Assembly: GCA_945865375.1 (NCBI GenBank)
Contig: CAMBEJ010000001.1
Coordinates: forward strand, 8,064 to 72,063
DNA: 64,000 bases
Source: Akkermansia muciniphila
GTDB lineage: Bacteria > Verrucomicrobiota > Verrucomicrobiia > Limisphaerales > F1-80-MAGS106
Direction: 5' to 3'
In this document: positions 1 to 64,000 of the stretch, in pieces
Position numbering within the stretch: the stretch's first letter is position 1
How the letters are laid out: every line of letters begins with the position of its first letter
Notes under the pieces: generated by a model
Databases searched by the model: none
Told to the model about the DNA's origin: nothing
The model's input: the letters and a program-made list of their open reading frames with translations, nothing else
Translations under genes and position numbers: made by a program

Positions 1-1
1 C

Positions 2-2125
2 AACACCATCCGCGATCTGATGGGGTTTGATTTCAAAGTGGAAGACGAACTGCCGCCAGACGACACCGGTTACGGTTTCGATAACATCGGCGACGTGCTC
101 ACAATGTCGCCGATGTTGTTGGAAAAATACATGCAGGCCGCTGAAACCATTGTCGCGGGGGCTGTGCCGAGGGTCGCGAAGGTTATCCCCGAAAAAAACA
201 TTCCAGGAACCGCCTTCGGAAAACGTGAGGCCGGACGCAGCGGCGACCGGTTCACTTTTTACGAGGAGGCGACCCTGTCCCGCCCATTCAACGCGGAGCA
301 CGCGGGAAACTATCGCGTGGCGCTCGACCTCGAAGTAGCAGGCCAGTTCGACTTCGATCCAGGCCGTTGTCTCGTGGTCTTTAAAGTGGATGACCACGAG
401 CTCTGGCGGCAGGAATTTGGCTGGCAAAACAACAAAAAGTTCAGACATGAATTCGAGGTGCCATGGCAGCTTGGTGAGCACAAACTCACGCTCGAATTAC
501 ACCCGCTCACGCCCGTCGAGAAAAAGAAAAATACCCTGGACTTGCGCCTCACCAACGTGCGGATCCAAGGGCCGCTTGACGAACATCTCCATGTGCGCCC
601 AAAAAACTTCGACCTGTTCTTCTCCAAGGACGTGCCGAAGAAGGCTGCTGAACGGCGCGATGACGCACGAGAGGTGCTAAGCCGTTTTGCCAGCAAGGCC
701 TTCCGTCGTCCGGTCGATAAGCGTTCCTTGGACAAGCTCGTGGCGATCGCCGAAGCCGCCTGGAAGGAGCCCGGAAAACGCTTCGAGGACGGCGTGGCCC
801 AAGCCATGGTGCCCGTCCTGGCGTCGCCTCGGTTTTTATTCCGCGTGGAGGAGGCCGAATCAGCCGCCTCCGCCAAAACCCATCCTGACGTCGACGACTA
901 CGCATTAGCCTCCCGACTCTCTTATTTTCTATGGTCCACGATGCCGGACGACGAACTGTTGCGCCTGGCAGCGCGCAAAGAGGTCCGCAAGACTCTCCCC
1001 GCCCAAGTCAAGCGCATGCTGGCCGATCGCCGCTCCGAGGCGTTGATCGAGAACTTCATCGGCCAGTGGCTGCAAGTCCGCGACATCGAAGGGATCGATA
1101 TCAATGCGCGTGCCGTGCTCACGCGGGACGCCGGTGAAGAACGGGATGCGAGCCGGAACCGTCAGCGTTTTCAGCAACTGCGCGACATCAAGGATGAGAA
1201 ACTCACGCCGGAAGAGCGCGCCGAGCTGCAGCGGCTTCGCGATCAATTCCGCGGCCGGGTCGGCAACCGACCTGTCACCGAACTTGATCGCGATCTGCGC
1301 CGCGCGCTTCGGCAGGAAACCGAAATGTCCTTCGCCCACGTCGTGCGCGGCGACCGCAGTGTGCTCGAACTGATCGACAGCGATTACACCTTTCTGAACG
1401 AAAAACTCGCCAAGCATTATGGCATCACCAACGTGTTGGGCAGTGAAATGCGCCATGTCACACTGCCGAAGGACAATCCGCGCGGCGGTGTGTTGACGCA
1501 CGGTTCGGTGCTGATCGTCACCTCGAACCCGACACGCACCTCGCCCGTCAAGCGCGGCTTGTTCGTGCTCGACAACTTTCTTGGAACGCCCCCTCCCCCT
1601 CCCCCGCCGGATATCCCGAATCTTGAAGAATCCGAGAAAGAGTTCAAAGGCAGGCAACCCACGCTCCGCGAGGCGCTCGAACTTCACCGCGCCAAGCCTT
1701 TGTGCAGCTCTTGCCATAATCGCATGGACCCGCTGGGGCTCGCGCTCGAAAACTTTAACGCGCTTGGCATGTGGCGCGAGAAGGAACGCGGCCAGACGAT
1801 CGATGCGGCGGGAAAGTTGATAACCGGCGAGACTTTCCATGACATCCGCGACGTGAAGCGCGTTCTAGCCACCACACATCGTCGAGACTTTTACCGATGC
1901 CTGTCTGAAAAGCTGCTCACCTACGCGCTGGGCCGGGGTCTGGAATATTACGACGTACAGACGACGGACCGTCTGGTTGAGAGCCTTGATCGTGAGAATG
2001 GCCGGTTCTCCGCGCTGCTGACGGGCATCATCGAATCCGCGCCGTTCCAGAAACGTCGCAACTCAGTCGTGACAGATCAAACCGCGCAGGCCAGTGTTTC
2101 GCCAAAAAAAACCGAATCGAAATGA
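2..2125 (+). CDS. DUF1587/DUF1592/DUF1588/DUF1585-architecture protein (PVC-type), 5' end outside window
   Basis: The reading frame is open to the window edge. Motifs seen: NTIRDLMGFD, LASRLSYFLWSTMPDDELL, FIGQWLQVRDI, TSPVKRG, CSSCHNRMDPLGLALENF. The TGA stop overlaps the next ATG (ATGA). Confidence 0.85.
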   Translation, partial: NTIRDLMGFDFKVEDELPPDDTGYGFDNIGDVLTMSPMLLEKYMQAAETIVAGAVPRVAKVIPEKNIPGTAFGKREAGRSGDRFTFYEEATLSRPFNAEHAGNYRVALDLEVAGQFDFDPGRCLVVFKVDDHELWRQEFGWQNNKKFRHEFEVPWQLGEHKLTLELHPLTPVEKKKNTLDLRLTNVRIQGPLDEHLHVRPKNFDLFFSKDVPKKAAERRDDAREVLSRFASKAFRRPVDKRSLDKLVAIAEAAWKEPGKRFEDGVAQAMVPVLASPRFLFRVEEAESAASAKTHPDVDDYALASRLSYFLWSTMPDDELLRLAARKEVRKTLPAQVKRMLADRRSEALIENFIGQWLQVRDIEGIDINARAVLTRDAGEERDASRNRQRFQQLRDIKDEKLTPEERAELQRLRDQFRGRVGNRPVTELDRDLRRALRQETEMSFAHVVRGDRSVLELIDSDYTFLNEKLAKHYGITNVLGSEMRHVTLPKDNPRGGVLTHGSVLIVTSNPTRTSPVKRGLFVLDNFLGTPPPPPPPDIPNLEESEKEFKGRQPTLREALELHRAKPLCSSCHNRMDPLGLALENFNALGMWREKERGQTIDAAGKLITGETFHDIRDVKRVLATTHRRDFYRCLSEKLLTYALGRGLEYYDVQTTDRLVESLDRENGRFSALLTGIIESAPFQKRRNSVVTDQTAQASVSPKKTESK

Positions 2126-3546
2126 CATCCATGAGCACCCCACAACCGCCCGATAAAAACCGCGCCGCCGAGCGATTCACGAGTTTGAACCGACGTCGCT
2201 TCTTACGCGGGCTGGGTGCCTGCATGGCGCTCCCGGCCTTTGAATCGCTTCGACCGCTTCATTTGCTCGCGGGAGAGTCCAAGGCAGCCGAAAGGTTGGC
2301 TACCACCGCCACAGGCGCGCCGCTACGCACGGCTTACGTTTACTTCCCGAACGGTGCGATCCAGCCGAACTGGTGGCCCAAGGGCGAGGGCACGGATTTC
2401 GAACTGGCCCCCACCATGCAGCCGTTGGCGAAGCTGCGGCACCAACTGCAAATCCTAGGCGGCATGGACCACGTCAACGCCACGCCAGGCCCCGATGGTG
2501 CTGGCGACCACGCACGGGCCAGCGGCACGTTCTTGACGGGTGTCCGTGTCAAAAAGACCGCTGGTTCGGACATTCAAGCGGGCATCTCGATCGACCAAGT
2601 CGCCGCCAACCAGATCGGCCACCTGACCCGGTTTCCTTCTCTTGAACTCACGTGCGACGCCGTGCGCAAGTCTGGCAACTGCGATTCCGGCTACTCGTGC
2701 GCCTACCAATATAATCTGGCATGGCGTTCGGCAACCACGCCTGTCGCTCCGGAACCGAATCCGCGACTCCTCTTTGAGCGACTTTTCGGTGCGGGCGCTC
2801 CGGGCGCGCGCGCGGCCAACCTCAAACGCCGCCAAGCGCAGCAACGGTCCATCATGGACTTCGTTCTCGAAGACGCCCGCGCGCTGCAAGGGAGGCTCGC
2901 CTATCGTGACAAGCAGAAGCTAGACGAGTATCTCTTCAGCGTGCGCCAGATCGAGAAGCGCATCCAGAAGACCGAGCGTTTCGCCCACGTCCCCGATCCC
3001 TCGGTCACGACCCCCTCCGGCATCCCGTCGAGCTACGAGGACTACATCCAGGTCATGTTCGATATGATGATTCTCGCGTTCCAGACTGACTCCACACGAA
3101 TCGCCACGTTTCTCATGGCCAACGAAGGCAGCAACCGCGCGTTCTCAGAGATAGGCATCTCCGAGGGCCACCACTTCCTCACCCACCATCAGAACAAAGC
3201 GGACATGATCACTAAAGTCGGGGAGATCGACCTGTTCTACATGAAGCAATTCGCCCGCTTCCTCGAAAACATGGAGAAGACGCCTGATGTGGATGGCAAA
3301 TCCCTGCTCCAGAATTCGATGATAATTTATGGCAGCGGCAACTCCGACGGGAACCGCCACACTCATGTGAACCTGCCTGTGATTCTCGCGGGCGGCGGAG
3401 GTGGCACTTTGAATCCAGGACGCTTTGTCAGATCCGGCGGTGTTCCCATGAGCAACTTGCTCTTGAGCATGACGGATCGACTGGGAGTCAAAGGTGTGGA
3501 ACGTCACGGTGATTCCACGGGGCGATTCGAAGCGATCGGGGGATAG
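2122..3546 (+). CDS. DUF1552 domain protein with Tat-type signal
   Basis: RRRFLRGLGACMALPAF at the N-terminus. Conserved stretches: YVYFPNG, SLELTCD, AYQYNLAW, PRLLFERLFG, DKQKLDEYL, NLPVILAGG. Translationally coupled to the upstream DUF1592-type partner, the usual pair in PVC genomes. Confidence 0.85.
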   Translation: MTSMSTPQPPDKNRAAERFTSLNRRRFLRGLGACMALPAFESLRPLHLLAGESKAAERLATTATGAPLRTAYVYFPNGAIQPNWWPKGEGTDFELAPTMQPLAKLRHQLQILGGMDHVNATPGPDGAGDHARASGTFLTGVRVKKTAGSDIQAGISIDQVAANQIGHLTRFPSLELTCDAVRKSGNCDSGYSCAYQYNLAWRSATTPVAPEPNPRLLFERLFGAGAPGARAANLKRRQAQQRSIMDFVLEDARALQGRLAYRDKQKLDEYLFSVRQIEKRIQKTERFAHVPDPSVTTPSGIPSSYEDYIQVMFDMMILAFQTDSTRIATFLMANEGSNRAFSEIGISEGHHFLTHHQNKADMITKVGEIDLFYMKQFARFLENMEKTPDVDGKSLLQNSMIIYGSGNSDGNRHTHVNLPVILAGGGGGTLNPGRFVRSGGVPMSNLLLSMTDRLGVKGVERHGDSTGRFEAIGG

Positions 3547-3650
3547 GCTGGCGTGCGATTTCTTGGGGACGCTCAAATTAAAAGAGTGGAGGACGGTGCG
3601 CCGGGCGTGAGCATGGTAGGCCGCGCGCCGGAGCTAACCGTTGCTGGAGG

Positions 3651-5135: not shown

Positions 5136-5157
5136 AATTCTTCCTCCATCGGTGCCC

Positions 5158-8298: not shown

Positions 8299-8324
8299 GG
8301 TGCGGTGATCAGACTTCTTTTGAA

Positions 8325-11909: not shown

Positions 11910-12039
11910 TGCGAAAGTATCCCAAAAAGGGGGCTGGGGTCAGAAAAATGTGGGATCAGGCGTCGGCACTAGGGGAAACATTAGAGGCCCCCATCCCCGG
12001 TGTCAATGAAGGCCCACTTTTTTGCAGCAGTTCCCATTT

Positions 12040-12250
12040 TCTGAACTCAGTAAAACGACCCTGTTCAGCCTGATGCTAAAGCCACCCCAGTTCCCCGCTC
12101 CTAATCGTAATCGTAATCGTAATCGTAATCCACCCCTCTGTTTCAAGGGCAACACCCGAGGATTACGATTACGATTACGATTACGATTAGGAAAAATGGA
12201 GCCGTTGAGGGGTTGCGCGTCCAGTTAATGGAAACACAGGGCCCCTAGGC
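12040..12250. repeat. ORF-less hexamer-stem palindromic element, copy A
   Basis: Perfect 32-bp stem cc(taatcg)4taatcc at 12100-12131 against gg(attacg)4attagg at 12160-12191, with a 28-nt loop. The left outer arm ends in ctcagtaaaac (12046-12056). Alignable by eye with the reverse complement of 18190-18381 and with 51954-52049. The right boundary is approximate. Confidence 0.8.
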
Positions 12251-12262
12251 CAATTCTATCCA

Positions 12263-12775
12263 GTGATCATCAATCGCGGACCGAATAACGCGTTTTATGC
12301 CCTGAACTCCCGTTGCTCCCACCAAAGCTGCATCGTCGAAGCACTGGATTCCAGCACGAACCTGATCAACTGCTTTTGCCACGGATCCATCTTCGCCATC
12401 GATGGACGGCGTATCGCCGGGCCGGCGTCCTCAGCATTGTCGAAGTACGCGCTCACGTTCGACGGTTCGAACCTTCTCGAGATTAAAATCCCGGGGCTTG
12501 GATACACCATCACAGCTTCTTCCGTGCAATCCGCTGATCAGGCAATCCCACGCATACGTCTCGATTTTCGGAGCCTCCGCAATGTGGATTACGAGGTTCT
12601 GTTCAGGGAATCACTGGACAAGGAAGCCACCGTCATTCCCTTTTCGCTCACTCCGGCGGACACCGCAGATCAAACCGTTTTTAGCGCCCCCACATCGGCG
12701 TCCGTCAGCCTGTTTGTGGACCGCACGTCTCCAAGCGGCTTCTACTCGATCGCCGTCCGCCTGACCGAGGCGTGA
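12263..12775 (+). CDS. Rieske [2Fe-2S] domain protein, N-terminally short (possibly truncated)
   Basis: CSHQSC...(17)...CFCHGS matches the CxH...CxxH Rieske ligand pattern, followed by DGRRIAGPA. Only 17 residues precede the first Cys. GTG start. The C-terminal 80 aa are of unknown fold. Confidence 0.6.
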   Translation: MIINRGPNNAFYALNSRCSHQSCIVEALDSSTNLINCFCHGSIFAIDGRRIAGPASSALSKYALTFDGSNLLEIKIPGLGYTITASSVQSADQAIPRIRLDFRSLRNVDYEVLFRESLDKEATVIPFSLTPADTADQTVFSAPTSASVSLFVDRTSPSGFYSIAVRLTEA

Positions 12776-19052: not shown

Positions 19053-19781
19053 CTACGCTTTCGTATCCTGCGTCTCCACCCAGCGCACAGCGTGTCGGAT
19101 GAGGGCGGTCGCGTCTTGCAGAGCCAGTTTCTCTTTGATGTGGCCCCGATGGACATCCACAGTTTTTGGGCTGATGAGAAGCTGCACGGCAATGTCCCGC
19201 GTGCTCCTGCCCTGACCGATGAGCCGAAAGACATCGAACTCCCTGTCGCTGAGTTTCTCGATCGGAGAATTGGACCCACGCGGGCGGCGGCCCGTGAGGG
19301 TGTCGAGCAGTTGAGCCGACAATCGTTCGCTGACCTAAACCTGCCCCATCAACACCTGACGAATAGCCGCGAGCAATTTCTCGGCACCTGCTTCCTTCAT
19401 GACATAGCCGCGGGCACCGGAGGGCAGGACACGTTCGGCATAAACGAGCTCATCGTGCATGGAGACGACGAGAATCGGCAGGTGAGGATGGAGCGCTAGC
19501 ACGTCTTTGATAAACTCGATGCCACTGCGGCCCGGCATGGTGAGGTCCGTCAAAAGCAGGTCTGCGTGGGTCTGCGAGATCGCACTGAGGGCCTCTGAGG
19601 AGTTGCCCGCTTCGCAGCGAGCCTCCAGGTCCGGTTGCTTGTTGATGAGTTGAGCGAGGCCAGCACGCATCATCGGATGGTCATCCACGACAAGGATGCG
19701 CTTGCGAGCGCCCGGAGCTGGGGCAGGTGTTGCTTTTGGGGAAGCCTTTCCGTGTTCGGTAAGCGGCCTTGTCGTGTTCAT
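19053..19781 (-). pseudogene. NarL/FixJ-type response regulator interrupted by an in-frame TAG
   Basis: The receiver (ILVVDDHPMMR...DLLLTDLTMPG...) and the LuxR HTH (LSDREFDVFRLIGQGRSTRDIAVQLLISPKTVDVHR) are in the same frame. They are separated only by TAG at 19335-19337 (LMGQV*VSERLSAQ). The start ATG overlaps the upstream kinase stop (ATGA). Confidence 0.85.
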
Positions 19782-20836
19782 GCGTATTTGCAAGGCACGG
19801 TGCAATTTACGGTCACACCTTTGCCCTGCTTTGACTCAATTACCAACATCCCTCCGGCAATGGCTGCCCGGTGCTTCATCACATCAAGGCCCATGCAGGC
19901 CCCAGCTTTCCTAGACCTGGAGAAGCCTTGGCCATCATCTGAAACCCGCAGCCGCACAGCGTCGTTGTCGCGGCTCAACTCGATGATGATGGCGCTGGGA
20001 TGTCCGTGCTTGAGGGCATTATTGACGGCCTCCTGCGCGATCCTGTAGAGATGGCCCGCCACCATGCTCTCTTCAATCAAAACCGGCGGCAGGCAATGGA
20101 TGCGGCACCTGATTTTGCCCATGGACCTCGTGTTTGTCGCGAGCTCTTCAAGGGCTTCCACGAGGCCTGTTGGCTCCGATCTCACGGGAGACAACCCACG
20201 GGACATTGACCGCGTCTGCGCGATGGTTTCGCGCAGAAACTCTCCCATCTTCGCGGCCTGTTTTTCAAGCGAGGGTAGCGCGGCGAGATCCTCCCGCAGC
20301 GAATGGCACATCAGCTCGATGGCCGTGAGCTGTTGTCCCAAGCCGTCATGAAGGTCATGGCCTATCCGCCGTTGTTCCTTTTCCGCGATTTCCAAGATCT
20401 CCATCTGGAGCTCCCTCGCCCGTTTCTCCCCGGGCGCAAGGCATCTTGTGTTCTCTACCTGCGCGAGCGCCCGCCTGACCACGATCGGAAGAAACTCGAT
20501 AAATTCGATGTCCTTGACGAGATAGTCGAGGGCGCCGCGCCTCATCATCTCGACGGCCACTCGCTCGTCGCCTTGCCCCGTGATGATGATGAATGGAAGC
20601 GAACGGCCGACGGCCAAGAGTTGATTGACCAGCTCTTCGCCTTCGGTGTCTTGCAGTTTGAGGTCCAGGAGCATGAGGTCCGTCGTGTTCTTGGCCAGCC
20701 ACGCCGTCGCGTCCCTGCCTGAAGACAGGATCGTCGCGGCGAAGCCTTCTCTTTTAAGAGCTTTTTCGATCAAGCGCAGCAGTCCCGCATCATCATCGAC
20801 GACGAGAACCCTGTTTGCTGGCGTGGCGTCCGGCAT
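19778..20836 (-). CDS. Hybrid receiver / HisKA_3-type histidine kinase
   Basis: N-terminal REC (VLVVDDDAGLL...LMLLDLKLQD...), H-box RIGHDLHDGLGQQLTAI, and an HATPase region (NNALKHG ... DDGQGF ... GMLVIESKQGKGVTV). Intact. Confidence 0.88.
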   Translation of the reverse strand: MPDATPANRVLVVDDDAGLLRLIEKALKREGFAATILSSGRDATAWLAKNTTDLMLLDLKLQDTEGEELVNQLLAVGRSLPFIIITGQGDERVAVEMMRRGALDYLVKDIEFIEFLPIVVRRALAQVENTRCLAPGEKRARELQMEILEIAEKEQRRIGHDLHDGLGQQLTAIELMCHSLREDLAALPSLEKQAAKMGEFLRETIAQTRSMSRGLSPVRSEPTGLVEALEELATNTRSMGKIRCRIHCLPPVLIEESMVAGHLYRIAQEAVNNALKHGHPSAIIIELSRDNDAVRLRVSDDGQGFSRSRKAGACMGLDVMKHRAAIAGGMLVIESKQGKGVTVNCTVPCKYA

Positions 20837-20843: not shown

Positions 20844-21295
20844 TCAGCCTGACCTCGGGCAGTGAAGCTCCGGCACCTGCACGAGGCAGATGAAGAGTCC
20901 GAGCTGCGTGATCGTTTCGATAAACTTTTCGTAGTCCACTGGCTTGACGATGTAATTGTTGCAGCCCAGCTCGTGGCACCGTGCTACCTCGCGCGGGTCA
21001 TCGGTGGTGGTCAACATGCTCACGGGCAGTCTGTGCAATTCGGGATCAGCCTTGATCTGGCGGAGCACTTCGACGCCATCCACCTTTGGCATACGGATGT
21101 TGAGCAATAGCAGATAAGAGGTGTCCGAAGTGCGCTTCGGCTCGTCGCCCCGGCGGAACAGGAAGTTGAGCACATCCTGGCCGTCTTCGAAACGCAGCAC
21201 CGGGTTGTGGAGGCCACCACGCCGAAGATTTTCTCGATGAGCCGGGCGTGCCCGTCGTCGTCGTCGGCGATGATGATGACCACTTCATTCGTCAT
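20844..21295 (-). pseudogene. CheY-like single-domain response regulator with a frameshift
   Basis: The N-terminus MTNEVVIIIADDDDGHARLIEK is in one frame. The continuation NLRRGGLHNPVLRFEDGQDVLNFLF...LLLLNIRMPKVDG...NNYIVKPVDYEKF is in the -1 frame. The switch lies at the A4 run (plus-strand TTTT, 21229-21232). Confidence 0.8.
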
Positions 21296-21313
21296 GATTC
21301 CCAACTTGGTGGC

Positions 21314-22492
21314 TCATTCCACCGAAGGGAAGGACACAATAAAGGTCGTAGTGCTGCCTGCCCCAGACTTGAGGCGGATCTGGCCATTCTGGCGTTCGAG
21401 GATCTTTTGCGCGATGGTCAGGCCGAGCCCTTCGCCCGTGCCGACGGAGGGATTGAGCCTGTGGAAAATCTCGAACACCTTGCCCTGATGCTCCAGGGCA
21501 ATGCCGATGCCGTTGTCCTCGACCTCATAGATGGCACTGCCATCCTCCACGCGACCTGTGACCCCAATCCGGCAGGGCCGGTTTGGATCCCGATATTTGA
21601 GGGCATTGTCCAGGAGATTGGAGAAGACCTGGTTGATCTGTGTGGAGTCGCCCAGGCAGCCGGGCAGAGTCCCCACACGGAGGGAGGCGCAGGGCTTGCT
21701 GGACGTTGATCAACGGGTGTTCATCTCGAAGGGCCCGATCCTTAGCGCCGCTCGGCCGAGCCGGGAAAAGCGGAGGAGGCTCGAGATCAACATTTCCATT
21801 TTGACCACGCCGGCATGGATGTAAGACAAGGCCTCGGGCACGTCCTCAGAGAGCAGGGTCAACAGTTCTCCCTTGTCGGCGACCTCTCCGGGCGCTCCAG
21901 ACAGTTTGGCTTTCAATCGTTCACAGGCCAGAGCGAGTTCCTTGCTGAACCCTTGCACGTTTACCAGTGGTGAGCGCAAGTCGTGGGAGGCAACGTACAC
22001 CACGGTTTCAAGGTCCCGGTTTTTCTGGGCTAGTTCCTTCCCCAGTTGGCCTAGCCGTTCCTGGTTTTCTTTGCGGAGGGTGATGTCCGTGCGAATAGAG
22101 AGGTATTGCACCGGTTTCCCAGCGGCGTTCAAGAATGGAAAAATCGTTGTGTCCACCCAGTAGAACGAGCCATCCTCGGCCCGGTTGTTGATCTCACCAT
22201 GCCACGGTTACCCGCTGGCGGTCGTGCGCCACATTTCGATAAACAACTCCTTGGAATGGCGGCCCGAGTTGATGATGCGATGGTTTTGGCCGATGAGCTC
22301 TTCTCGCGAATATTTCGAGATCTCGCAAAACTTATCGTTGACGGTGGTGATAATGCCCGAGGCGTTGGTGGTGGCCACGATGGAATGGGCATCGATGGCA
22401 GCTTTGAGGTTTCGCAGCTCAGATGACCTGGCATCCATGGGGAGCTCTTCCTGCTCCCGCGTGTTTCCAGAGCATGATTCGAGCTCTTTCAT
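21314..22492 (-). pseudogene. PAS-domain sensor histidine kinase broken into three ORFs
   Basis: PAS ([40 protein letters not shown]), an in-frame TAA at 22208-22210 ([24 protein letters not shown]), H-box ASHDLRSPL, then a short out-of-frame stretch at 21679-21717, then HATPase ([27 protein letters not shown]). Confidence 0.85.
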
Positions 22493-23377
22493 TCAAGCCG
22501 CTTTTGGGAGACGATCGCGATAGGTCGTCGGCGCCTCGCCGACGGTTTTCCTGAACACACGGTTGAAGTGGGTGAGTGACTGGAAACCAACTCCGAAGGC
22601 GATTTCGCTGACTCGCAAGTTGGGGTTGAGCAGGAGGTCTTTCGCCTTCTCGATTCGCGTTCTCGAAACGAACTCTGTAAATGTCAAACCCGTGAGTTTT
22701 CGGAAGATCTTGCAAAAGTAAAATCGACTCGTATGAACCGCACCCGCAACCTGGCCCAGCGAGAGTTTCTCTGCGTAATTCTCCAGGATGTACTGCTTCG
22801 CCCTGGTTATCATGAGCGGCTCCGCAGTCGCCGATTGCACGGCAAGCTGGTTGCTCTTCATCGAGATATGATCCGCGAAGATTGTGAGCAAGGCCGATAG
22901 GGAGTCGAGCTTCTTCTGGGACACGACTGGCGTCTGAAAATAGGCTTCTTTGGCCTTTGGAGTGTTGAGGTCCACCCCATGTCTTTTAGCCTGATCGACG
23001 GCTCGTCGGAAAGAGGTGTTGGTCGGTTTCTGGCGCATCACCTGGCCGGTCTGCAGAAAACCGATGGTGTTCGATCCAAGTTTTACCGGCACAGCGGTCT
23101 CGTACAGGCCGTAAGAGCAGATGATCGTGGCGGGCTCACCCATGGCTTCCTTGGCCAATTTCTCTTGCATTTGCAGGCATGCGGCGCAGGCGCTCCTCTG
23201 CTCGGTCATCAGCTCGCAGAAGGGGTTCTCCATGCGTTTGCCGTGGAGGGGGATCTGCCACGTCTGCAGCGGCCGAAACGTCAGCGGTAGCCCAGTCGCC
23301 TCCGTGTAAGCATGCTCGTAAGTTTGATACATCTCGGGTCGAGTCAGCTGTTCAATCAATTGTCCGTTCGCGTTCAT
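22493..23377 (-). CDS. AraC-family transcriptional regulator with PocR-like sensory domain
   Basis: Cys-rich PocR-like region (FCELMTEQRSACAACLQMQEKL...ICSYGLYETAVPV) and a C-terminal AraC HTH (SLGQVAGAVHTSRFYFCKIFRKLTGLTFTEFVSRTRIEKAK...FQSLTHFNRVFRK). Start at MNANGQ. Its stop is directly followed by the kinase ATG (TGAATG). Confidence 0.85.
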   Translation of the reverse strand: MNANGQLIEQLTRPEMYQTYEHAYTEATGLPLTFRPLQTWQIPLHGKRMENPFCELMTEQRSACAACLQMQEKLAKEAMGEPATIICSYGLYETAVPVKLGSNTIGFLQTGQVMRQKPTNTSFRRAVDQAKRHGVDLNTPKAKEAYFQTPVVSQKKLDSLSALLTIFADHISMKSNQLAVQSATAEPLMITRAKQYILENYAEKLSLGQVAGAVHTSRFYFCKIFRKLTGLTFTEFVSRTRIEKAKDLLLNPNLRVSEIAFGVGFQSLTHFNRVFRKTVGEAPTTYRDRLPKAA

Positions 23378-23676
23378 TGCCCGTTCATTCTCGTTTTTTG
23401 CTGACACAGGGTTGTGTTCAACGAAAGCAAAATACGCGCTATGAGCGTTCTTGGATATCGGGAGTGACTCTTCAAACGAGTAAGAAAAATGCAGGAGTGG
23501 ATAGGGAAATCCCTTATTGAGCGGGTATGTGAACCCCATGCCGACGGGCCATTCGAATTCCTTGCGGCCCTGAATCCAAGCGACCACGGCTCGAGCTCTG
23601 AGGCTCGTGCGGAATTCTCAGATCAAGCGCCACCAGAGCGGGTTCATGCCTGCTCGCGATGAGGGAACGTATCCAT

Positions 23677-31676: not shown

Positions 31677-31845
31677 GCCGGTTAGGAAAGACCGAGGCAT
31701 TTAAGTGGCCCGTCCGGATTGCGAGTTCAACCGCTCTTTCTGGGGTTTCATACCAAACCGACGGGTTCATAGCCTGCGACAAACGTCCGAAAGCTGGAAA
31801 AGTTTTGACAAGCACCCCGATAGCACTACTCTGCCGCAACCTCGT

Positions 31846-31921
31846 TGGGGTCGTAGCTCAGTTGGTAGAGCACCACAATGGCATTGTGGGGGTCAGGGGT
31901 TCAAATCCCCTCGGCTCCACC
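31846..31921 (+). tRNA. tRNA-Ala (anticodon GGC), CCA encoded
   Basis: Cloverleaf read by eye: acceptor GGGGTCG/CGGCTCC with the G3:U70 alanine identity pair, D arm GCTC-AGTTGGTA-GAGC, anticodon arm CCACA-AT GGC AT-TGTGG, T arm AGGGG-TTCAAAT-CCCCT, discriminator A, CCA. Confidence 0.92.
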
Positions 31922-32103
31922 ATCTTTTCACGATGGCTGGATTTTTGAGTGTTACCTGAACAGTCGTCCGCGCCTGTTCCATCCGGGCACGCCCACTCCT
32001 TCAGCATGCTCCAAACAAGGACGGGCTCAACGACAAATCCCTTTGAGTAAATTATTTGTGCGGACTTCTTGGGAATGGTCTAACCTCGTCCGCATCTTCG
32101 TGA

Positions 32104-33104
32104 TTGCCGTATGAAAGAATACGGAATTCGGTTGAGGCTGGAAAAATGGAACTGGAGGCTTCCCTATTCGATCTGCGCCAAGTGGTGCATGGCAGTCTCG
32201 TGATGCTCAAGGAACGCGCGGCCAACCACGGGATCCATTTGAAAGCAGAAATTGGTGAAGGCGTCGACAAGCTCTTTGCCGACGAGAGCAAGATCAAACA
32301 GATACTTTTCAACCTGCTTTCGAATGCGGTGAAATTCACCCCGGACAAAGGATCTGTCGGGATCAAGGTCGCCGTGGTGAGAGATGAAATTCAAATCGCG
32401 GTCTGGGACACTGGCATAGGGATTCCAAAGTCTGAGCAGGATAAGCTGTTTAAAGAATTCCATCGAGTGCAGTCCAGTCTGAGCGCGACTGTTGAAGGGA
32501 CGGGCTTGGGCTTGACCCTGACGAGGAAGTTTGTCGAATTGCATGGCGGACTGGTTTGGATGGAGAGCAGTCCGGGTTCGGGAAGCGTTTTCACGATTGC
32601 TCTGCCTAACCAAAAGTGGAACGAAGATACCATGTTCCTTTCTCCTCCGCAGAATGATCCAGATCCGCTGGAGGCCGACACCCGCCACGAAGAGGACGCC
32701 CAAGTGCTCGTGGTCGAACCGGATGCCGGAGTCGCAGATCTGCTCACTCGGCACTTGAACGAAGCGGGCTACACAGTGGCTGTGGCCTGCGACTACGAAG
32801 AGGGTTGGGAGAAGCTCAAGGCGCAACCGCTGCGGGTGGTTGTTCTGGATATTTTGCGAACCCAGACCAGCAGGGTCTCTTTTCTGAACCGGCTGAAGGA
32901 GGCTCCCGAAACAAAGGACCTGCCGCTGATTCTGGTGTCCAGCTTGGAAGGGGAGGAGATGGTCGAGGGGGCAAGCGGGACCGAGCGCCTCGCCAATCTC
33001 GATCCGAAGTTGCTGATAGAACAGTTGGGAGCTTCGATGGGTATTTGTCCAAGCCTATTGATCTCAAGCAACTCTTTGAGTTAGTGAAGAGCCATCTGGG
33101 ATGA
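32104..33104 (+). pseudogene. Histidine kinase remnant: HATPase_c plus degenerate receiver, lacking HisKA, with a 3' frameshift
   Basis: Begins inside the linker (EAGKMELEASLFDL) with no H-box upstream. HATPase motifs NLLSNAVKF, DTGIGI, GTGLGLTL. The receiver has a VVEPDAG acidic pocket variant. The canonical receiver end FDGYLSKPIDLKQLFELVKSHLG is in another frame from about 33034. Confidence 0.75.
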
Positions 33105-38990: not shown

Positions 38991-39494
38991 GCGCCTCTCA
39001 GATTTTTCCAGATCTTCTCGTCATCGTCATCGTCATCGTAATCCTACTCGTAATCCCATGAACCGCCGATTCGACCACGAAAAGCTGGAGGTTTGCCAAG
39101 TCTCTTTGGCTTTCATCACATGGCTTGAGCCGATCCTGCAGAAATTGCCCAAGTCCCTCTCTGTGACCGACCCATTGGATCGGGCCAGTACCTCCATCCC
39201 TCTGACCATTGCCGAAGGCAACGGAAAATTCACTGGAGCGGATCGTTGCCGATAGTTTGACAATGCCCGTAGCTCCGCTTTGGAAAGTGCCGAAGCCCTG
39301 GATGTGCTCGTGGCCAAAGGCCGATGTTCTGGGGAGGAAGTTCTGTCAGGAAAAGACCGCCTCTGGAGCGTCGTTTCGATGCTAGTCGCCTTGATAAAGG
39401 CAAACTCCGATTACCGGTTGCACGACGGAAACCCGGGATAGGATTACGATTACGATTACGATTACGAGAAGATCTGGAAAAATCTGAGATGCGC
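38991..39494. mobile_element. IVS-like hairpin element: 54-bp hexamer-repeat inverted arms enclosing a four-helix-bundle ORF
   Basis: Arms 38991-39044 and 39441-39494 are reverse complements at 50 of 54 positions. (TCATCG/TAATCG)n on the left faces (CGATTA)n on the right. Related to the ORF-less copies at 12.1, 18.3 and 52.0 kb. Mobility is inferred, not shown. Confidence 0.6.
39058..39441 (+). pseudogene. Four-helix-bundle protein (TIGR02436 / 23S rRNA-IVS protein family) with an in-frame TAG
   Basis: MNRRFDHEKLEVCQVSLAFITWLEPIL...DRASTSIPLTIAEGNGKFTGADRCR * FDNARSSALESAEALDVLVAKGRCS... The family pattern continues in the same frame across TAG at 39253-39255. Confidence 0.8.
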
Positions 39495-46953: not shown

Positions 46954-49900
46954 ATGCAGCCTTGTCACTTCTTGATCTTGATGGCGGGCTTCGCCATGGG
47001 AGCGCTGTCAACTCATGGGCAATCCGCGCAGCCTTCGAAGCCTGCGGAACATTTGGCCGCGACCAGCGCGCCAAGCGCTCTCCTCGCTGTCTCCGGAAAA
47101 GTAGAAGTTTCGAAGTTCGGTTCCACCGAATGGTCGCTCGCCACCTTGAACCAAACCCTCAGTGTTGGAGATAAGGTGCGAACAGGAGCAGGGAGCCGCG
47201 CCGCCATCCGCCTTCCAAACCTGAGCGTGCTTCGCATGAACGAACGGACGACCGTGGAAATTCAAAAACCCACCACAACCGTCTCTAAAGCCACTCTCAG
47301 CATCCAGGTCGGGGCGGCCTATTTTTTCGGTCGAGGCCAGCCGGGTGAAATCAATGTGCGCACTCCGATGGCTACCAGCGCCATTCGCGGAACGGAGTTC
47401 AACGTTCAAGTGGACTCGAACGGTGCCACGGTCTTCACAGTGATCGAAGGGGGTATGGATGTGGCCAATGATCTGGGCAGTGTTCCGTTGAAACCGGGGC
47501 AGCAAGCTTCAGTCGTCCACGGTGCAGCGCCACAGGTCAGCCCCTTTCTCCAATTGAACAATATCATCCAATGGTCCTTGTACTATCCCGGGGTGATTGA
47601 CACTTCCGAGCTGGAGTTCAACCCGGAAGAAACCACGCTGCTCTCAGCCTCCTTGACGGCTTACCGCGAAGGAGATCTCGCGGGCGCGCTGGCAAGGTTG
47701 CCCTCGCTGGTGGGCCGCTCAGATTCCAGCGGCATCTACGAAGCGGCGTTGCTACTTTCGGTGGGTCAGGTCGGGCAGGCCCAGTCCAGGCTGGGCGATG
47801 TAAAATTAAAAACCGCCAGGAGCCACGAGCTGATCGATGCTCTCACAACTCTGATCGCGACGGTCAAAAATCAGGCGGTTCCGAACACGAACGAGTCAGC
47901 CTCCGTCAGCGCCTCGCCTTCGCTCCTCATGGCGCGTTCTTATTGGCTCCAGTCGCGCTTCAAACTCGAGCAGGCGTTCACCCTGGCGATGGAAGCCACG
48001 AAAATCTCGCCGAATTTCGGATTTGCCTGGGAACGATTGGCCGAGCTGCATTTCAGTTTTGGACGCGTGGACGAGGCCCGGCAGGCAATGGAGAAAGCGC
48101 TCGAACTCTCGCCAAAAAACGCGCAAGCCCTGGCTTTGCGGGGCTTTCTTCTGAGCGCCGAGAACAGGATCGTGCGTGCTCAGGAGGCCTTTGAGCAGGC
48201 CATCGCGCTGGATCCCAACCTCGGCAACGCATGACTTGGGCTCGGCCCTCTGCCGCATCCGCCGAGGAGACGTCAGGGCCGGCCTCGAGGACCTTCAGAC
48301 GGCTGCCGCGCTGGAACCTAATCGCGCGATGTTGCGCAGCTATCTTGGCAAAGCGTTCGGCGCTGCCCACGATTCGGATCATGCCCTCAACGAACTGCGT
48401 CGAGCCCTCGCACTCGATCCGTCGGATCCCACCGCCTGGCTTTACTCCGCGCTCCTGAAATATGACCAGCACCGGATCAATCCGGCAGTGGAAGATCTCG
48501 AATATTCCCTGACTTTGAACGACAATCGACGCCTCTTTCGCTCGCGGTTCCTGCTGGATCAAGACAAAGCCGTTGGCAGCGTTAATCTGGCAAATTTCTA
48601 TCTCGCGGCGGGGTTGACCGATGTCAGTGTCCACGAGGCCTCCCGTGCGGTGACTTACGACTACGCGAACCCATCCGCGCACCGTTTCCTGGCCGACAGC
48701 TTCAATGCTCTGCGCGACCCGGCCCGATTCAACCTGCGCCACGAGACGGTGTGGTTTAACGAGACCCTGCTATCCGATCTCCTTTCGCCCGTCGGTGCCG
48801 GTTCCCTCTCGCAGCATGTTTCACAATATGAGTACTCTAAGCTTTTCGAACGGGACCGCCTTGGATTCAACACTTCAACCACCGCCCGGAGCGACGGTCA
48901 GTACCAGGAATTTGCCTCCCAATTCGGTACCTTCGGAAACTCCAGCTATTCACTGGACTTAGAATATCAATTCAACAAAGGGGTGCGTCTCAACAACAAA
49001 CTGTCTCGCATCGAGTGGTATTCCAAGATCAAGCAACAACCGACCGAGAAGGACTCGCTCTTCCTGCTCACGAAGTATTAGGATTATCACTCGGGGGATA
49101 ATTTCCAGTACTACGATCCCAAGAATGCACGCCCTCACTTCTCTTATGATGAATTTCAGTCCCCGTATGTGGTCGGGGCCTATCGTAGGGAATGGTCGCC
49201 GGGGATCCACACCTTGATGCTGACAGGCGGCTTCAACAATGAGCAAAAGTTTGGAGATACCGCAGTCCCCATCCCGGTCGTGCTGGCCCGCAGTGCCGCG
49301 GGAGACGTCACCCGGCTGAGCAATCCCGCGTTTGACGTGGATTACGGCAGCGACTTTTCGTTTTACCACGCTGAACTCAACCAAATAGTGCAATCCGTTC
49401 GGAGCACGCTGGTCGGTGGCGTTCGTTACCAGGTTGGAGAGTTTGAAACCCGCAACCGGCTGGACCTCGTCCCCGGCAGCTCTTTCGGATTGCTGTTCCC
49501 GACACCCGCAGCAAACTCTTCTTTCATTGATCAGTTCGAGAGGGTGTCCGGTTACGTTTATTTCACTCGGGCGTTCTGGGATCAACTCTATCTAACCGGC
49601 GGCGTTTCATACGATCGGATGCGTTATCCGGCGAATCACCGCATGCCTCCCATCGCGGGTGCCGAGTCGGAAGAGGACCAAGTGAGTCCAAAGGCCTCGT
49701 TGGTCTGGATTCCGAGTGACAGACTCAGCGTGCGTGCGATGTATAGCCGTTTCCTAGGTGGGGTCAGGTTCGATCAGAGTTACGGGCTCGAGCCCACGCA
49801 ACTCGCCGGTTTCGGCCAACCCTACCGTACGATCATCTTCGAATCCATAGTGGGCTCCGTTTCCGAACCGAAGTACGAAGTGGCCGGGGCGGGTGTTGAC

Positions 49901-50479
49901 CTGAAGTTCAAGACCCATACCTACGCCGGAATACAAACAGAACTTTTGCGCTCCGAGGTGAACAGCCCGGTCGGCGCGTTTAGTTTCCCTTTACCGATAA
50001 GTTCTTCCACGCTGGCGAGGAGTCTCGATTACCAAGAGCGCGTGGCCAGCCTCTACGTTCAGCAGTTGCTCGGGGATGAGTGGTCGGCGGGGGCTTCCTA
50101 CACGTTGCGCGATTCCGACCTGCACACGTTCTATCCCGAAATCCCCGTGACGGTGGCCGCGAAGGCGGACAAGACGGAGCGCGCCACCATGCATCAGATC
50201 AACGCGAACGTTCTGTTCAATCACCACTCGGGCTTCTTTTCCCGCCTGGATTCGAGCTGGACCCTGCAAAGCAACCGCAGTTACAGCCCGGACATCCCCG
50301 GCGACACCGTTCATCAGTTGGATTTCTCCGTCGGCTACCGTTTCCCTCGCCAGATCGGCTCCATTTTGCTGACCGTGGGAAATCTTACGGACCAGGATTA
50401 CAAGCTCAACCCGTTGAACATTTACACAGAGATGCCTCGCGAGCGTGTGTTTTCGGCAAGGCTGCGGTTGCATTTTTAA
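46954..50479 (+). pseudogene. FecR-domain / TPR / C-terminal beta-barrel protein, disrupted in two places
   Basis: Signal peptide and FecR-like domain (46954-), then TPR repeats running across a frame switch at 48232-48250. An in-frame TAG at 49079-49081 (LTKY*DYHSGDNF) follows. A barrel-like C-terminus ends ...FSARLRLHF. The three ORF-track pieces (46954, 48176, 49169) join seamlessly. Confidence 0.75.
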
Positions 50480-50729: not shown

Positions 50730-51897
50730 ATGAAACAAACCAACGATCGATCGGTACAGAGGGTTTTCGTGGCCATTGGCATTGCCGCCGCGATTTTCGG
50801 CGGTGTGATGCTGTTCTCAAGGTTGCTGTTTTCAAAGAAGCCCAGCGAGACCCATGCCATCACGACCACAACCGCCCCCCCTTCGGTTGAGCGTCCAGAG
50901 CGGTCTTCGGAACGAGACCGCGTGGCGCGAGCTGAACTCACGCTTCGGGGTGCCGCCGCGAAGCTGAATTCCGCGCAATCCACCAAGAACGCCAGCGATT
51001 TGCTTCGCGAACTTCGTGCCACGCTTGGCAGTCTGAGTGCCGATGCCGCCTCTCAACTCGTGCAGCAGTTTTTGGCGGCGGGAACCGATGCCCGCACTTA
51101 TCTTCCGTTCGCGTTGGGTTCGGGGGGGGGCTTTGCAGGACGCGCCTTCTCTTCGGGTCTTTCTTCTGGATTATCTCGAACAGGTCGATCCCGCCGCCGC
51201 AGCCCGTGTGGGTTTGGAAGTGCTCAAACGGATGGACTCGTCTGACGAATGGGCACTGGCGCTGCGGAGCGTCGCCAAGTTCGACCCGTCAGCGCAGAGT
51301 CGCGCCCTCCTGGAAGAAAAAATGCGGCAGATATTTTCGCACGAACCCTGGCAGCAGAATCCGAGCTCGAGCTATCTCGAATCCTTCGATGTCGCCGTCC
51401 ATTTAGGCGGCAGCGATTTGCTCCCGGACCTCACAAGAATGCTGCGAATGACCAATAATCAGGCGGTCGCTCACGCCGCCTTTCTGGCAACCGACCGGCT
51501 GGTCCAGCGGGATCCGACTCCGGTGCTGGCCGCCTTGCTCACAGAGCCGGGAATGATGGAAGGCAGAGAAGCGACGCGGGCCAATTACTTTGCGCGAGCC
51601 GACGTGTCGAACACCGATCAGCGCCGATTGGTGCAAAACTACCTCCTGAACCCCAGGACGACCGAGTCCGAGCTGGACACATTCGCGGATTCGTTCCCGA
51701 ACGAGAACTCGATGCTAAGCAACAACCTCCTGACGAAAAGCGCGACACGCAGCGGATCCCAAATTCAAGCCCGGGATACCCAAACGTTGCGGATCATCAA
51801 TGCCTGGCTGCAAGATCCTCGTTTCAAAGGCGTCATTCCGCAGCTCAACACCATCCGCTCGCGCCTGGAATCTTTCCTGGCCAAACCCGCGCCGTAG
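50730..51897 (+). pseudogene. Membrane-anchored hypothetical protein with a frameshift in a G9 tract
   Basis: ORF 50730 (TM VFVAIGIAAAIFGGVMLF ... LPFALGSGG) and ORF 51037 (ALQDAPSLRVFLLDYLEQVDP...) fuse in frame if the G run at 51122-51130 were 8 rather than 9. Confidence 0.65.
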
Positions 51898-52789: not shown

Positions 52790-52845
52790 GGGACAATTTA
52801 TCTAGTTTGCCTGGATCGCTTCGGGGGTGCGTTGCCACTCAACGT

Positions 52846-54330: not shown

Positions 54331-54410
54331 GGTTTTATCGATGCTTTGAGTTCTGAATGACGTGGGATGTGACAGCCGCGGCGGCGGTGTGGTTACACGC
54401 AATCTCCGAT

Positions 54411-58755: not shown

Positions 58756-58901
58756 GCGAACACCCGCGAGAAAATTGCGAGCAGGACCACTACGAGCACG
58801 AAGAATCCGAACACGAAGAGGTAAACGCCGCGCCAAGTGCGGAAGCCGGGCACGCCGGGCGACTCATCGCCGGTCGAATGATCGGGCGGAGAAGGCTTCA
58901 T
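58752..58901 (-). CDS. Small membrane protein (49 aa), not in the ORF track
   Basis: MKPSPPDHSTGDESPGVPGFRTWRGVYLFVFGFFVLVVVLLAIFSRVFA has one TM helix. ATGA overlaps occur at both ends (58898-58901 and 58752-58755), which argues for translation. Confidence 0.6.
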   Translation of the reverse strand: MKPSPPDHSTGDESPGVPGFRTWRGVYLFVFGFFVLVVVLLAIFSRVFA

Positions 58902-61408: not shown

Positions 61409-61517
61409 TCGAAGGAGTCAGCGACTTCCTTCGCCTCGTGGGCTATCACGCTACCCCGACCTTCCACTTTGAGATTCATATCTTCGGGCGCTTGAATTGA
61501 TCGCCGATATCGGCGTC

Positions 61518-62087
61518 CTACTTCTTGACCGTGAACGGCACCGAGAATTGAGTGTTTTCCCACATCAATTTGATCACGCCGCCGCCCGATGAATTTTTCA
61601 CCACGGCCATGTTGAACTGGTCCAGCGGTTTTTCGAGAGTCTCCTTTTTCAGATCCACGCGGGCTAGATCGTTTTTTTCATCCACGGGAACTCCCCACGC
61701 CCCAAGCTTGGTGCCGAAGGCGAGCTTGGACGCGCCGCTTCCTGAAGGGATGGTGTAGAGGGTGTAAGCGCCGGCTGGGATCGTGGTCTCGCCAATCACG
61801 ATCGGCTGCTGTGTGATGAGCATCGTGGCTTCATCCGAGCCGGTGCGCCAAGCCTTGTCCCAAGGCACGAGACCGCCCCAGATGGTTCGAGGCTCGCCGG
61901 TTTTGGGATCCTTTGTAAAGGGTCGGCCGTATGTAATCGTCACCCGGTTTCCGTCGATGACAGCGCTGGTGGTTTCATGCGGGCTGTTGCCCCCGGTGGA
62001 GGCTGCTTTCTTTTGCTGGGCCAGCAGTGGCATGGAGCTGACCAACGTGGCGGCGATGATCGTGAGGATGGATTTTGTCATGTTCAT
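61518..62087 (-). CDS. DUF2911 domain protein (secreted)
   Basis: Signal peptide MNMTKSILTIIAATLVSSMPLLAQQ. Also ITYGRP......R.IWGGLVPWDKAWRTGSDEAT ... IPAGAYTLYTIP. Confidence 0.75.
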   Translation of the reverse strand: MNMTKSILTIIAATLVSSMPLLAQQKKAASTGGNSPHETTSAVIDGNRVTITYGRPFTKDPKTGEPRTIWGGLVPWDKAWRTGSDEATMLITQQPIVIGETTIPAGAYTLYTIPSGSGASKLAFGTKLGAWGVPVDEKNDLARVDLKKETLEKPLDQFNMAVVKNSSGGGVIKLMWENTQFSVPFTVKK

Positions 62088-62258
62088 GGTATCTCTGATA
62101 GACTGTGGTTGATGGATAATTGCAGTCAACGTGAAAAGACACGGCTCACGGACATTGACTTGCCCCTCTTCCAACAGGTTACAGGGACCGCCATGGCCCT
62201 GATGGATCTCCTCTATGATGTCTGTGTTTTTCGCATCAAAAGGAAATGATTTTCCCGG

Positions 62259-62678
62259 TCAATCCTTCGCCCAGTAATCAAGAACGAAAACGTCGTCGAT
62301 CAACGGCCCCACCAATTTACCAAACTCCTTGTGGGCAGGATGGGGAATGTAGGAGTCGCGGTCTTTCTCGGATCGGAAGGTCAGGACGAAGGCATGGGTG
62401 CAGCCTTTGTTCTTTCCCTCGGCACTGTTATTCGTGCCACGTTCGAACTTCTTGATCGCAGGAATCTTTTGCTCCAGTTCACGGAAGGCGGTTTCAACCT
62501 GCTTGATTTGTTCCTGGGTGGTGGCCTCTTTAAATTTGAAAGCCACCACGTGACGGAGCCGGGGCTTTTTTTCATCGGACTTAGCAGGTTTTGAGGATTT
62601 CTCCGCCGTTTTCTCGGCGGCGAGGCCCGCGGTCGCGCAGCCACAGACAAGGACTGCAATCAGGATAAGATAGTTCAT
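62259..62678 (-). CDS. Dabb (stress-responsive alpha/beta barrel) domain protein with signal peptide
   Basis: LRHVVAFKFKE...ETAFRELEQKIPAIKKFERG......GCTHAFVLTFRSEKDRDSYIPHPAHKEF. Confidence 0.78.
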   Translation of the reverse strand: MNYLILIAVLVCGCATAGLAAEKTAEKSSKPAKSDEKKPRLRHVVAFKFKEATTQEQIKQVETAFRELEQKIPAIKKFERGTNNSAEGKNKGCTHAFVLTFRSEKDRDSYIPHPAHKEFGKLVGPLIDDVFVLDYWAKD

Positions 62679-62921
62679 GCGTTCGTGAGTTAAGTTGAGG
62701 GCAGAGGATAGGATGCTCCAGAACAGATTGCAAGTTGAGTCACGTGCCTTGAAGGGTATCGATTCTCAACTTGTTTTGAATATTAAACGTGAATCGTTTG
62801 CGGTGCGTCACCGGTTCATTCAAAGCCCCATATTGGGACCATGAACTCAACTCTGCGCTTCTCCCAGTAGAGCAGAGGGCACGGATCTCCCGCCCCGTCT
62901 TTCATCGGCCTCATTTGCAAG

Positions 62922-64000
62922 TCACGCCTTTGAGCCCATGACATCCGCCAGGAGCTCATTCATCCGATGCACCATGCTCCGAGGGTCCTCAAGCAACCCC
63001 GCCGCAGCCCGCGCATTGTCGAGCAATTGCTCCGCCACCTTGGAAGCCAACGCCGGGTTCTCGTCCCTGACCCTGTTCAATCGCGCCAGCACCACATGAT
63101 TGGGATTGATCTCCAGATCATACTTTGCTTGCTGAGACTCCTTGTTCATGGACTTCAAAATGCGACGCATGCTTGCCGTCATATAACGGTCGCTGTCCAC
63201 CACCAACACCGGGCTTTCCACCAACCGCTTCGAGACGCGCACCTCGGAAACTTTGTCGCCAAGCGACTCTTTCAACCACTTCGCCAGTTCCTCGGCTTGA
63301 GCAACCTCGAGCTTCTCTTCCGAAACCGACTCGGTAGCATCGATTTTGACATCAGCCTTTTCTGCTGATTTCAAGGGCTTCCCATCGAATTCCCGCAAAT
63401 GATCCATGACAAACTCGTCCCAAGGATCCGAGAAAAACAGCACCTCCAGCTTTTGGGCTCGCATCCCCTCATAATACGGACTGGATTCCGCTGACTCACG
63501 AGTGGGGGCGAGCACGTAGTAAATCTCCTTCTGATCCGGACCCATGCGCTTGATGTAGTCGGCGAGGGACGTGGTCTTGCCTTTGTCCAAGGCCGAAGTT
63601 TCGTAGCGAATCAACTTGGCCAGCGCGTCTCGGTGGGTGAAGTCCGTGACGATGCCTTCCTTCAGAAAACGCGAAAATTGTTCGTAGAACTTGTCGTAAG
63701 TTTCCTGATTTTTCTCCGTTTGTTCTTCGAGGAATTTGATGAACCGGCTGCTGAGAACCTTGTTCAACTTTTGCATCAAGGTGCTGTCCTGCATGGTCTC
63801 GCGCGAGATATTCAACGGAAGATCCTCGCTGTCCACAACGCCCTTCAAAAAACGCAGCCACTCTGGGAACAATCCATCGGCCTTGGCCTGGATCAACACG
63901 CGCTTGCAATAAAGATGCACTTCAAGATCCCCTCGCGCCATCCCAGCCTCCTCAAGATTCCGCGGCGGCACGAACAAAACGGCCTGAATTGCAAGAGGTG
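62922..64000 (-). CDS. htpG: Molecular chaperone HtpG (Hsp90), C-terminal part; N-terminus outside window
   Basis: AIQAVLFVP...LYCKRVLIQ...PEWLRFLKGVVDSEDLPLNISRETMQDS... The frame is open to the window edge. Confidence 0.95.
   Translation of the reverse strand, partial: PLAIQAVLFVPPRNLEEAGMARGDLEVHLYCKRVLIQAKADGLFPEWLRFLKGVVDSEDLPLNISRETMQDSTLMQKLNKVLSSRFIKFLEEQTEKNQETYDKFYEQFSRFLKEGIVTDFTHRDALAKLIRYETSALDKGKTTSLADYIKRMGPDQKEIYYVLAPTRESAESSPYYEGMRAQKLEVLFFSDPWDEFVMDHLREFDGKPLKSAEKADVKIDATESVSEEKLEVAQAEELAKWLKESLGDKVSEVRVSKRLVESPVLVVDSDRYMTASMRRILKSMNKESQQAKYDLEINPNHVVLARLNRVRDENPALASKVAEQLLDNARAAAGLLEDPRSMVHRMNELLADVMGSKA

Follow-up and report, generated by a model that had tools for sequence, protein, structure and literature searches.

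The window analysed here comprises 64,000 nucleotides (nt) of contig C1, positions 8064 to 72063, of G000, a 5.79-Mb assembly in 266 contigs (N50 31 kb, 57% G+C, completeness 93.6%, contamination 1.2%). The subject of this work is a set of interrupted genes in this window that belong to a two-component operon, an isolated hybrid histidine kinase and its neighbour, a copy of a repeat element, and a FecR-TPR-barrel gene with the gene downstream of it. A previous sequence-only reading had proposed at least ten coding lesions in eight accessory genes, with all large housekeeping genes spared, and had explained them by selective gene decay. Each of these sites was translated and set against orthologues cut from related genomes, with the orthologues in G001 and G002, both of the same genus as G000 and about 60-98% identical to it at the protein level, serving as intact references. 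All of the proposed lesions are present in the sequence, and intact orthologues span the breaks. The affected genes and their immediate neighbours are as follows.

19053-19805, minus strand: NarL/FixJ-type response regulator pseudogene, with a TAG at 19335-19337 between the receiver and the HTH domain
19778-20836, minus strand: receiver-HisKA_3-HATPase kinase of 352 amino acids (aa), intact, a full-length match to a 354-aa orthologue in G002
20844-21304, minus strand: CheY-like single-domain response regulator pseudogene, with a 1-nt deletion in the A/T run at 21229-21232
21314-22492, minus strand: PAS-HisKA-HATPase histidine kinase pseudogene, with a TAA at 22208-22210 and deletions near 21680-21717
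22493-23587, minus strand: PocR/AraC-type regulator, the first gene of the operon, intact according to the orthologue alignment
31847-31922, plus strand: tRNA-Ala(GGC)
32026-33030, plus strand: remnant of a HAMP hybrid histidine kinase (HATPase and a degenerate receiver), delineated with the G002 orthologue
33031-33104, plus strand: last 23 codons of a stand-alone response regulator, fused to the kinase remnant by a deletion
39058-39441, plus strand: four-helix-bundle open reading frame (ORF; 23S_rRNA_IVP, PF05635) of a repeat element, with a TAG at 39253-39255 in place of Tyr
46954-50479, plus strand: FecR-TPR-TonB-type beta-barrel gene with three lesions, a single 1214-aa ORF in G002
50730-51897, plus strand: frameshifted gene of about 390 aa, with no Pfam match, directly downstream of the FecR gene

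The operon at 19.0-23.6 kb consists, in order, of the PocR/AraC regulator, the PAS histidine kinase, the CheY-like regulator, the 352-aa receiver-kinase and the NarL-type regulator, and three of these five genes are broken. In the NarL gene, the TAG replaces the conserved Tyr of the GQVYVSERL sequence of the orthologues, and the HTH domain past the stop is still 85% identical to that of G001. The frame switch near 21229 in the CheY-like gene is equally clear: the window has A4 where the IEKNL(Q/T/R)R sequence of the orthologues, in one frame, needs A5. In the PAS kinase, the TAA at 22208 replaces the Lys of the GKVW sequence of the orthologues. The two further frame switches that had been placed at 21715 and 21679 in this gene are real, but a net 24 nt are missing, and the pair is best read as a loss of 1 nt plus a loss of about 23 nt. 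The DNA alignment with G001 puts the single missing nt at the run 21715-21717 and 23 more near 21680-21700, leaving 12 codons between the two deletions out of frame, including a TGA at 21710-21712, after which the frame is restored. The intact 352-aa kinase sits mid-way in this decaying operon and was found on 21 contigs; the JGI metagenome contigs scanned with it yielded distant relatives only, at 26-39% identity. In G000, G001 and G004, two genes in an unchanged order encode the PAS kinase and the CheY-like regulator; in G002 (locus L009, contig C78, 3312-5228), one 639-aa open frame, a hybrid kinase, covers both. Redundancy through an intact paralogous operon is not supported, given that only partial paralogues are present (a NarL homologue on C51, 48%; a PAS homologue on C51, 67%; an AraC homologue on C41, 68%).

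In G002, the counterpart of the kinase remnant is a HAMP hybrid kinase of 814 aa, with a response regulator of 131 aa as the next gene. As expected from the proposed 5'-truncation, about 345 N-terminal residues of the orthologue are absent, and the remnant, which starts about 100 nt downstream of tRNA-Ala, retains only residues ~346-677, without the phospho-acceptor His box. Two further stops lie in the weakly alignable stretch 32026-32104. The lesion at 33034, which had been taken for a frame switch, does exist, but it is the junction of a deletion of about 0.71 kb that runs between two GGCTT microhomologies. A 312-aa fragment of the kinase remnant is present in 6 further assemblies or loci. 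Synteny among assemblies of the same species breaks at 31841, at the 5' end of tRNA-Ala, with a sulfatase and an enolase upstream in ERZ27280264.

All three lesions proposed in the FecR-TPR-barrel gene hold up against the orthologue: the TGA at 48232-48234 replaces Trp, the TAG at 49079-49081 replaces Gln, and the run at 48246-48248 is CCC as opposed to CC in the intact allele, the TGA and the inserted C being two separate events. In the gene downstream, the frame switch near 51122 falls at a G9 run (51122-51130).

The four-helix-bundle ORF is a separate case, namely, one decaying copy of a multi-copy repeat element with 78 tblastn matches in the G000 genome, mostly 3' fragments. Judging from the paralogous copies, the TAG at 39253 indeed replaces Tyr: two of these copies, on C163 and C60, share the TAG, and six others have Tyr. 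The 65-aa fragment of this ORF is also called in 4 other assemblies (4 of the 6 loci that share the kinase remnant). A second synteny break among assemblies of the same species lies within this repeat, at 39385, past which different assemblies run into GcvP, TatC or DUF6883/CN_hydrolase; this break and the one at 31841 reflect either genuine rearrangements at repeats or assembly along alternative paths.

Overall, there are 12-13 lesions in 8 of the approximately 49 window genes, in agreement with the initial count. Collinear orthologues from G001 or G002 span the NarL, CheY, PAS kinase and FecR-TPR-barrel genes, the gene downstream of the latter and the hybrid kinase. The residue lost to each lesion stop is a conserved one (Tyr, Lys, Trp or Gln), with both flanks 40-90% identical to the orthologues, and the frameshifts fall within REC, HisKA-HATPase linker and TPR regions. 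The lesions are also clustered: when 13 lesions were placed randomly by gene length in a simulation, 8 or fewer genes were hit in only 2% of the runs. The large genes are intact, as had been noted before, including those for the 1069-aa PSD protein, the 1035-aa propeller kinase, ClpB, GcvP, Gnd and the 836-aa PIG-L protein, and so are the remaining window genes for which the fetched relatives offer an orthologue, their alignments running from end to end with neither stops nor changes of frame.

Given that G000 is a metagenome-assembled genome (MAG) in 266 contigs with an N50 of only 31 kb, the first explanation to be weighed is that the lesions are consensus or assembly errors, such as homopolymer miscalls, chimeric joins of strains or collapsed paralogues, concentrated in variable accessory regions. 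Three of the indels do fall in short runs (A4, C3 and G9), and repeat elements do break synteny between assemblies at the two positions given above. Furthermore, an in-frame stop lies within clpB of another MAG, G025 (locus L058, contig C180, near position 3330), where the gene is split into two same-frame ORFs of 372 and 533 aa with one codon between them; hence a lesion or an error in a core gene of a MAG can occur, although clpB is intact in the window.

Recurrence speaks strongly against errors. Over 20 contigs contain the same locus; they derive from three run series (ERR3719xxx, ERR5863xxx and SRR13399486), several ENA assemblies (ERZ accessions) and two other NCBI MAGs (GCA_947443885.1 and GCA_947446415.1), and an exact look-up in NCBI, ENA and Logan placed each of the fragment proteins on 5-12 contigs. 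Ten loci carrying the operon (ERZ27280328, ERZ27280297, GCA_947443885.1, ERZ27265268, ERR5863107, ERR5863119, ERR3719144, ERZ27280264, SRR13399486 and ERR3719152) are 99.9-100% identical to the window and have the same bases at 19335, 21229, 21680-21717 and 22208 wherever they reach these positions. The NarL TAG is the identical base in 10 independent loci, the deletion in the CheY-like gene is identical in 9, and the PAS kinase lesions are identical in 8-9, the PAS kinase gene being called in every assembly as fragments of 94 or 76, 148 or 133, and 120 aa. The G9 run has the same length in 8 of the 8 sequences compared. Thus, identical bases are seen at every lesion in up to ten other assemblies, produced with different pipelines from at least three run series; besides, five of the lesions are substitutions and one is the 0.71-kb deletion, and no lesions were detected in 97 metabolic domains (see below). 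The sequence-only reading had left room for an error component at homopolymers, and this doubt is removed by the recurrence of the A4, C3 and G9 indels in independent assemblies.

The FecR-TPR-barrel gene provides evidence of a different kind because intermediate haplotypes exist. In GCA_947446415.1 and ERZ27265268, the gene carries only the TAG at 49079 and encodes a 708-aa product; in ERZ27280328 and ERR5863119, the TAG is accompanied by the inserted C, with a 455-aa product; and in the window and ERZ27280297, all three lesions are present, with a 426-aa product. These three haplotypes are nested, each on its own background of linked single-nucleotide polymorphisms (SNPs), a pattern that sequencing error could not produce, and the series shows the order of the lesions: first the TAG at 49079, then the additional C, then the TGA. 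Every FecR haplotype carries the frameshift in the downstream gene. In the dead barrel part of the gene, at 50279-50350, eight SNPs within 72 nt set the window haplotype apart from all other assemblies; this cluster looks like one recombination or gene-conversion patch rather than eight separate mutations. Taken together, these comparisons make it extremely improbable that the lesions are errors: the lesions are real and mostly fixed.

Real lesions do not necessarily mean dead genes, and the interrupted genes could still be functional through stop suppression or recoding, through programmed or phase-variable frameshifts (at G9), or as split proteins. Three of the five in-frame stops are TAG, the sequence past each stop is still well conserved, and poly-G tracts are a classical means of phase variation in surface genes. 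The 43 tRNA genes of G000, however, include no CUA, UUA or non-selenocysteine UCA suppressor, the only UCA tRNA being tRNA-Sec. The TAG codons replace Tyr, Tyr and Gln, and there are TAA and TGA stops as well, so that no single reassignment fits; amber suppression or a changed genetic code is ruled out by the absence of a suppressor tRNA and the mixture of replaced residues. With respect to frameshifting, the orthologues in G001, G002, G004, G013, G025 and G030 are in a single frame at the frameshift sites, which means that a conserved slippery site is absent and excludes programmed frameshifting. The length of the G tract is constant in 8 sequences, and A4 and C3 are stable within haplotypes; phase variation at G9 is not supported, the tract being invariant in all 8 assembled sequences. 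The kinase remnant lacks the His box, and in the PAS kinase the linker between HisKA and HATPase is read in the wrong frame and interrupted by a stop. Continued function of the broken genes thus appears highly improbable.

The distribution of the lesions across gene classes is biased. In the window, 6 of the 11 signalling genes are broken, compared to 2 of the 38 others (Fisher p = 0.0007, a value that overstates the case because genes of the same operon are not independent). The whole G000 genome was then scanned for five Pfam families with stops read through. Among 61 Response_reg domains, there were 2 in-domain stops and 2 frameshift splits, and among 44 HATPase_c domains, 1 in-domain stop with RAYT-like sequence behind it, 1 frameshift split and 3 further remnants or truncations, whereas ABC_tran (65 domains), adh_short_C2 (21) and Aminotran_1_2 (11) showed none. 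In sum, the 105 receiver and kinase domains contain 6-9 lesions and the 97 metabolic ones 0 (p = 0.03 to 0.003), so that in these five families no equal density of lesions exists in metabolic domains, and the proposed selectivity of the decay is borne out by the signalling excess both in the window and across the genome. One of these cases, at C8:1981-2526, is a histidine-kinase ATPase domain that stops at an in-frame TAA and continues into RAYT/IS200-like transposase sequence, a kinase that was probably cut by a mobile element.

An unselected sample of orthologues gives the overall frequency of broken genes. From 0.67 Mb of G002, we obtained 306 pairs with G000 at 50% or greater identity to G002; the automatic scan made 11 lesion calls, of which 4 (shadow ORFs or non-coding DNA) were dropped by eye, leaving 7 of the 306 pairs (~2%) broken in G000. 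These are a hybrid kinase (a 320-residue deletion), an 879-aa histidine kinase and its upstream 512-aa neighbour (one frameshift each relative to G002, at C4:68589-72690), an outer-membrane TPR protein, a TolB-like propeller, a RAYT/IS200-like transposase and a Cys-rich protein with no function assigned. By look, with function read from the sequence rather than from Pfam, there are no core metabolic or information-processing genes among the seven. The C4 pair resembles a second decaying operon elsewhere in G000.

These counts raise the possibility of a lineage-specific collapse of two-component signalling, with about 6-8 of some 37 histidine kinases and 5 of 61 receiver domains dead in this species, those in the window at least being fixed across several series of samples, while the congeneric species and five further members of the order retain theirs. 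The best 150 kinase-domain matches in G002 and four other members of the order contained one in-frame stop and, away from contig ends, no short frames. We regard such a collapse as a tentative and rather doubtful interpretation; if true, it would testify to a niche shift that a free-living Verrucomicrobium underwent recently, observed at a stage when the dead genes have yet to be deleted.

As for the age of the lesions, a three-taxon comparison gave an excess divergence on the G000 branch of -0.06 to +0.01 for broken and intact genes alike. The lack of extra amino-acid divergence on this branch points to recent inactivation, and the broken genes appear to have been under constraint during the greater part of the period after G001 diverged. 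The same comparison rules out old pseudogenes with accelerated divergence.

Several observations weigh against the interpretation of the broken genes as a class-biased set of recent pseudogenes. Polymorphism in the broken genes is only about twofold above that in intact genes, which is not significant (p roughly 0.07, hand calculation). The support for the lesions comes from assemblies, so that minor intact alleles could exist within samples, and some of the "independent" assemblies may stem from the same runs as G000. The class test covers five Pfam families with domain matches that are not all independent, and accessory genes are under-represented in the orthologue sample because of its identity limit. 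Finally, the reciprocal scan found about 4-5 true lesions among 372 pairs in G002; with a raw rate similar to that in G000, an overall pseudogene load of ~2% is unremarkable. Nevertheless, the compared genomes directly show that the lesions exist and are reproducible, that they arose in a nested order and that their distribution is biased by gene class. We estimate at roughly 0.85 the probability that the broken genes are true pseudogenes of recent origin that belong to one natural population.

This population would be an uncultured freshwater species of Verrucomicrobiota, represented by the 5.8-Mb MAG, in which two gene clusters and an isolated kinase were probably inactivated by mutations of ordinary kinds, namely, single-base substitutions to stop codons, indels of 1 nt in short runs, the loss of 23 nt and the 0.71-kb microhomology deletion. 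The clustering would follow simply: as soon as a signalling pathway or operon has lost one component, the remaining ones would cease to be of selective value and gather more hits; genes that remain under purifying selection would be unable to retain such mutations in the population. We infer from these patterns that the genes are non-functional and that relaxed selection is the likely cause.

The alternative to relaxed selection is adaptive loss, that is, real lesions that became fixed because losing the sensors was advantageous, for example, in the course of streamlining as known from planktonic bacteria of fresh water. All assemblies seen are fixed for the operon lesions, and the kinases are broken in G000 and not in the relatives. 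No intact NarL allele was found: when 5.8 billion proteins were searched with the read-through form of NarL, nothing above 84% identity came up, which means that no intact allele of this species is on record. There is also a precedent, in that planktonic Methylophilaceae strongly cut their two-component systems at a habitat transition (PMC6794327). Conversely, the several hits per gene or operon, together with the later FecR hits that are still segregating, are what neutral decay after a first hit predicts, and the genome is large (5.8 Mb at 94% completeness) and repeat-rich, unlike streamlined genomes. Adaptive loss thus seems unlikely compared with relaxed selection, although a selective sweep and drift as such cannot be separated, the present data fitting both.

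Outside the genes discussed so far, one more window ORF deserves mention. The 170-aa ORF at 12263-12775 matches the Rieske profile only from position 27 of the profile, beginning at the second residue of the ORF, and it lies directly downstream of a foldback repeat with (CGTAAT)n arms (~12085-12195). G001 and G002 yielded no orthologue for this region (window 11910-12775). The ORF may represent a ninth broken gene, 5'-truncated through insertion of a repeat element.

For users of MAGs, the practical consequence is that the split signalling genes of this species reflect biology rather than noise from assembly and call for annotation as pseudogenes instead of short "orphan" domains. The FecR series with its three haplotypes is a clean natural case of stepwise decay after a first hit, and the excess of dead kinases hints that the population recently gave up part of its sensory repertoire. 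Knowledge of how bacterial genes die is unchanged by these findings.

The comparison with known systems places these genes among familiar ones. Poly-G contingency loci are the basis of phase-variable genes in Neisseria, Haemophilus and Campylobacter, and the window resembles them in that a G9 run within a coding sequence, beside a surface-protein gene, causes a frameshift; the difference is that this G9 is invariant in 8 of 8 sequences and that the neighbouring FecR gene is dead as well. A closer parallel is the "domino" idea of gene death proceeding by pathway or operon, which Dagan, Blekhman and Graur are said to have put forward in 2006 for obligate pathogens and symbionts undergoing massive reduction. 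Here, too, linked neighbours are hit (three of the five operon genes, the two adjacent genes at 46.9-51.9 kb and the C4 pair), although only ~2% of the sampled genes are broken. In Salmonella, nonsense, frameshift and deletion mutations give rise to pseudogenes (Kuo and Ochman 2010, PMC2916853), and the likeness extends to the few young lesions in dispensable genes, deletions included, with intact copies in close relatives; those pseudogenes, however, are strain-specific, whereas the lesions described here are fixed across many samples of an uncultured free-living Verrucomicrobium known from metagenomes alone. Freshwater Methylophilaceae adapting to the pelagial have reduced two-component systems (Salcher et al. 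2019, PMC6794327) and share with the present case both the class of genes lost, sensory and regulatory, and the lake habitat, but there the loss is complete and the genomes are streamlined, in contrast to the fresh pseudogenes of the present case, in a large, repeat-rich genome for which there is no record of a habitat shift. The concentration of the lesions in sensory operons agrees with the known tendency among lake bacteria towards loss of two-component systems (PMC6794327). Seen against these systems, what the window contains is ordinary bacterial pseudogenisation concentrated in sensory operons, a well-documented instance of this process rather than a new phenomenon.

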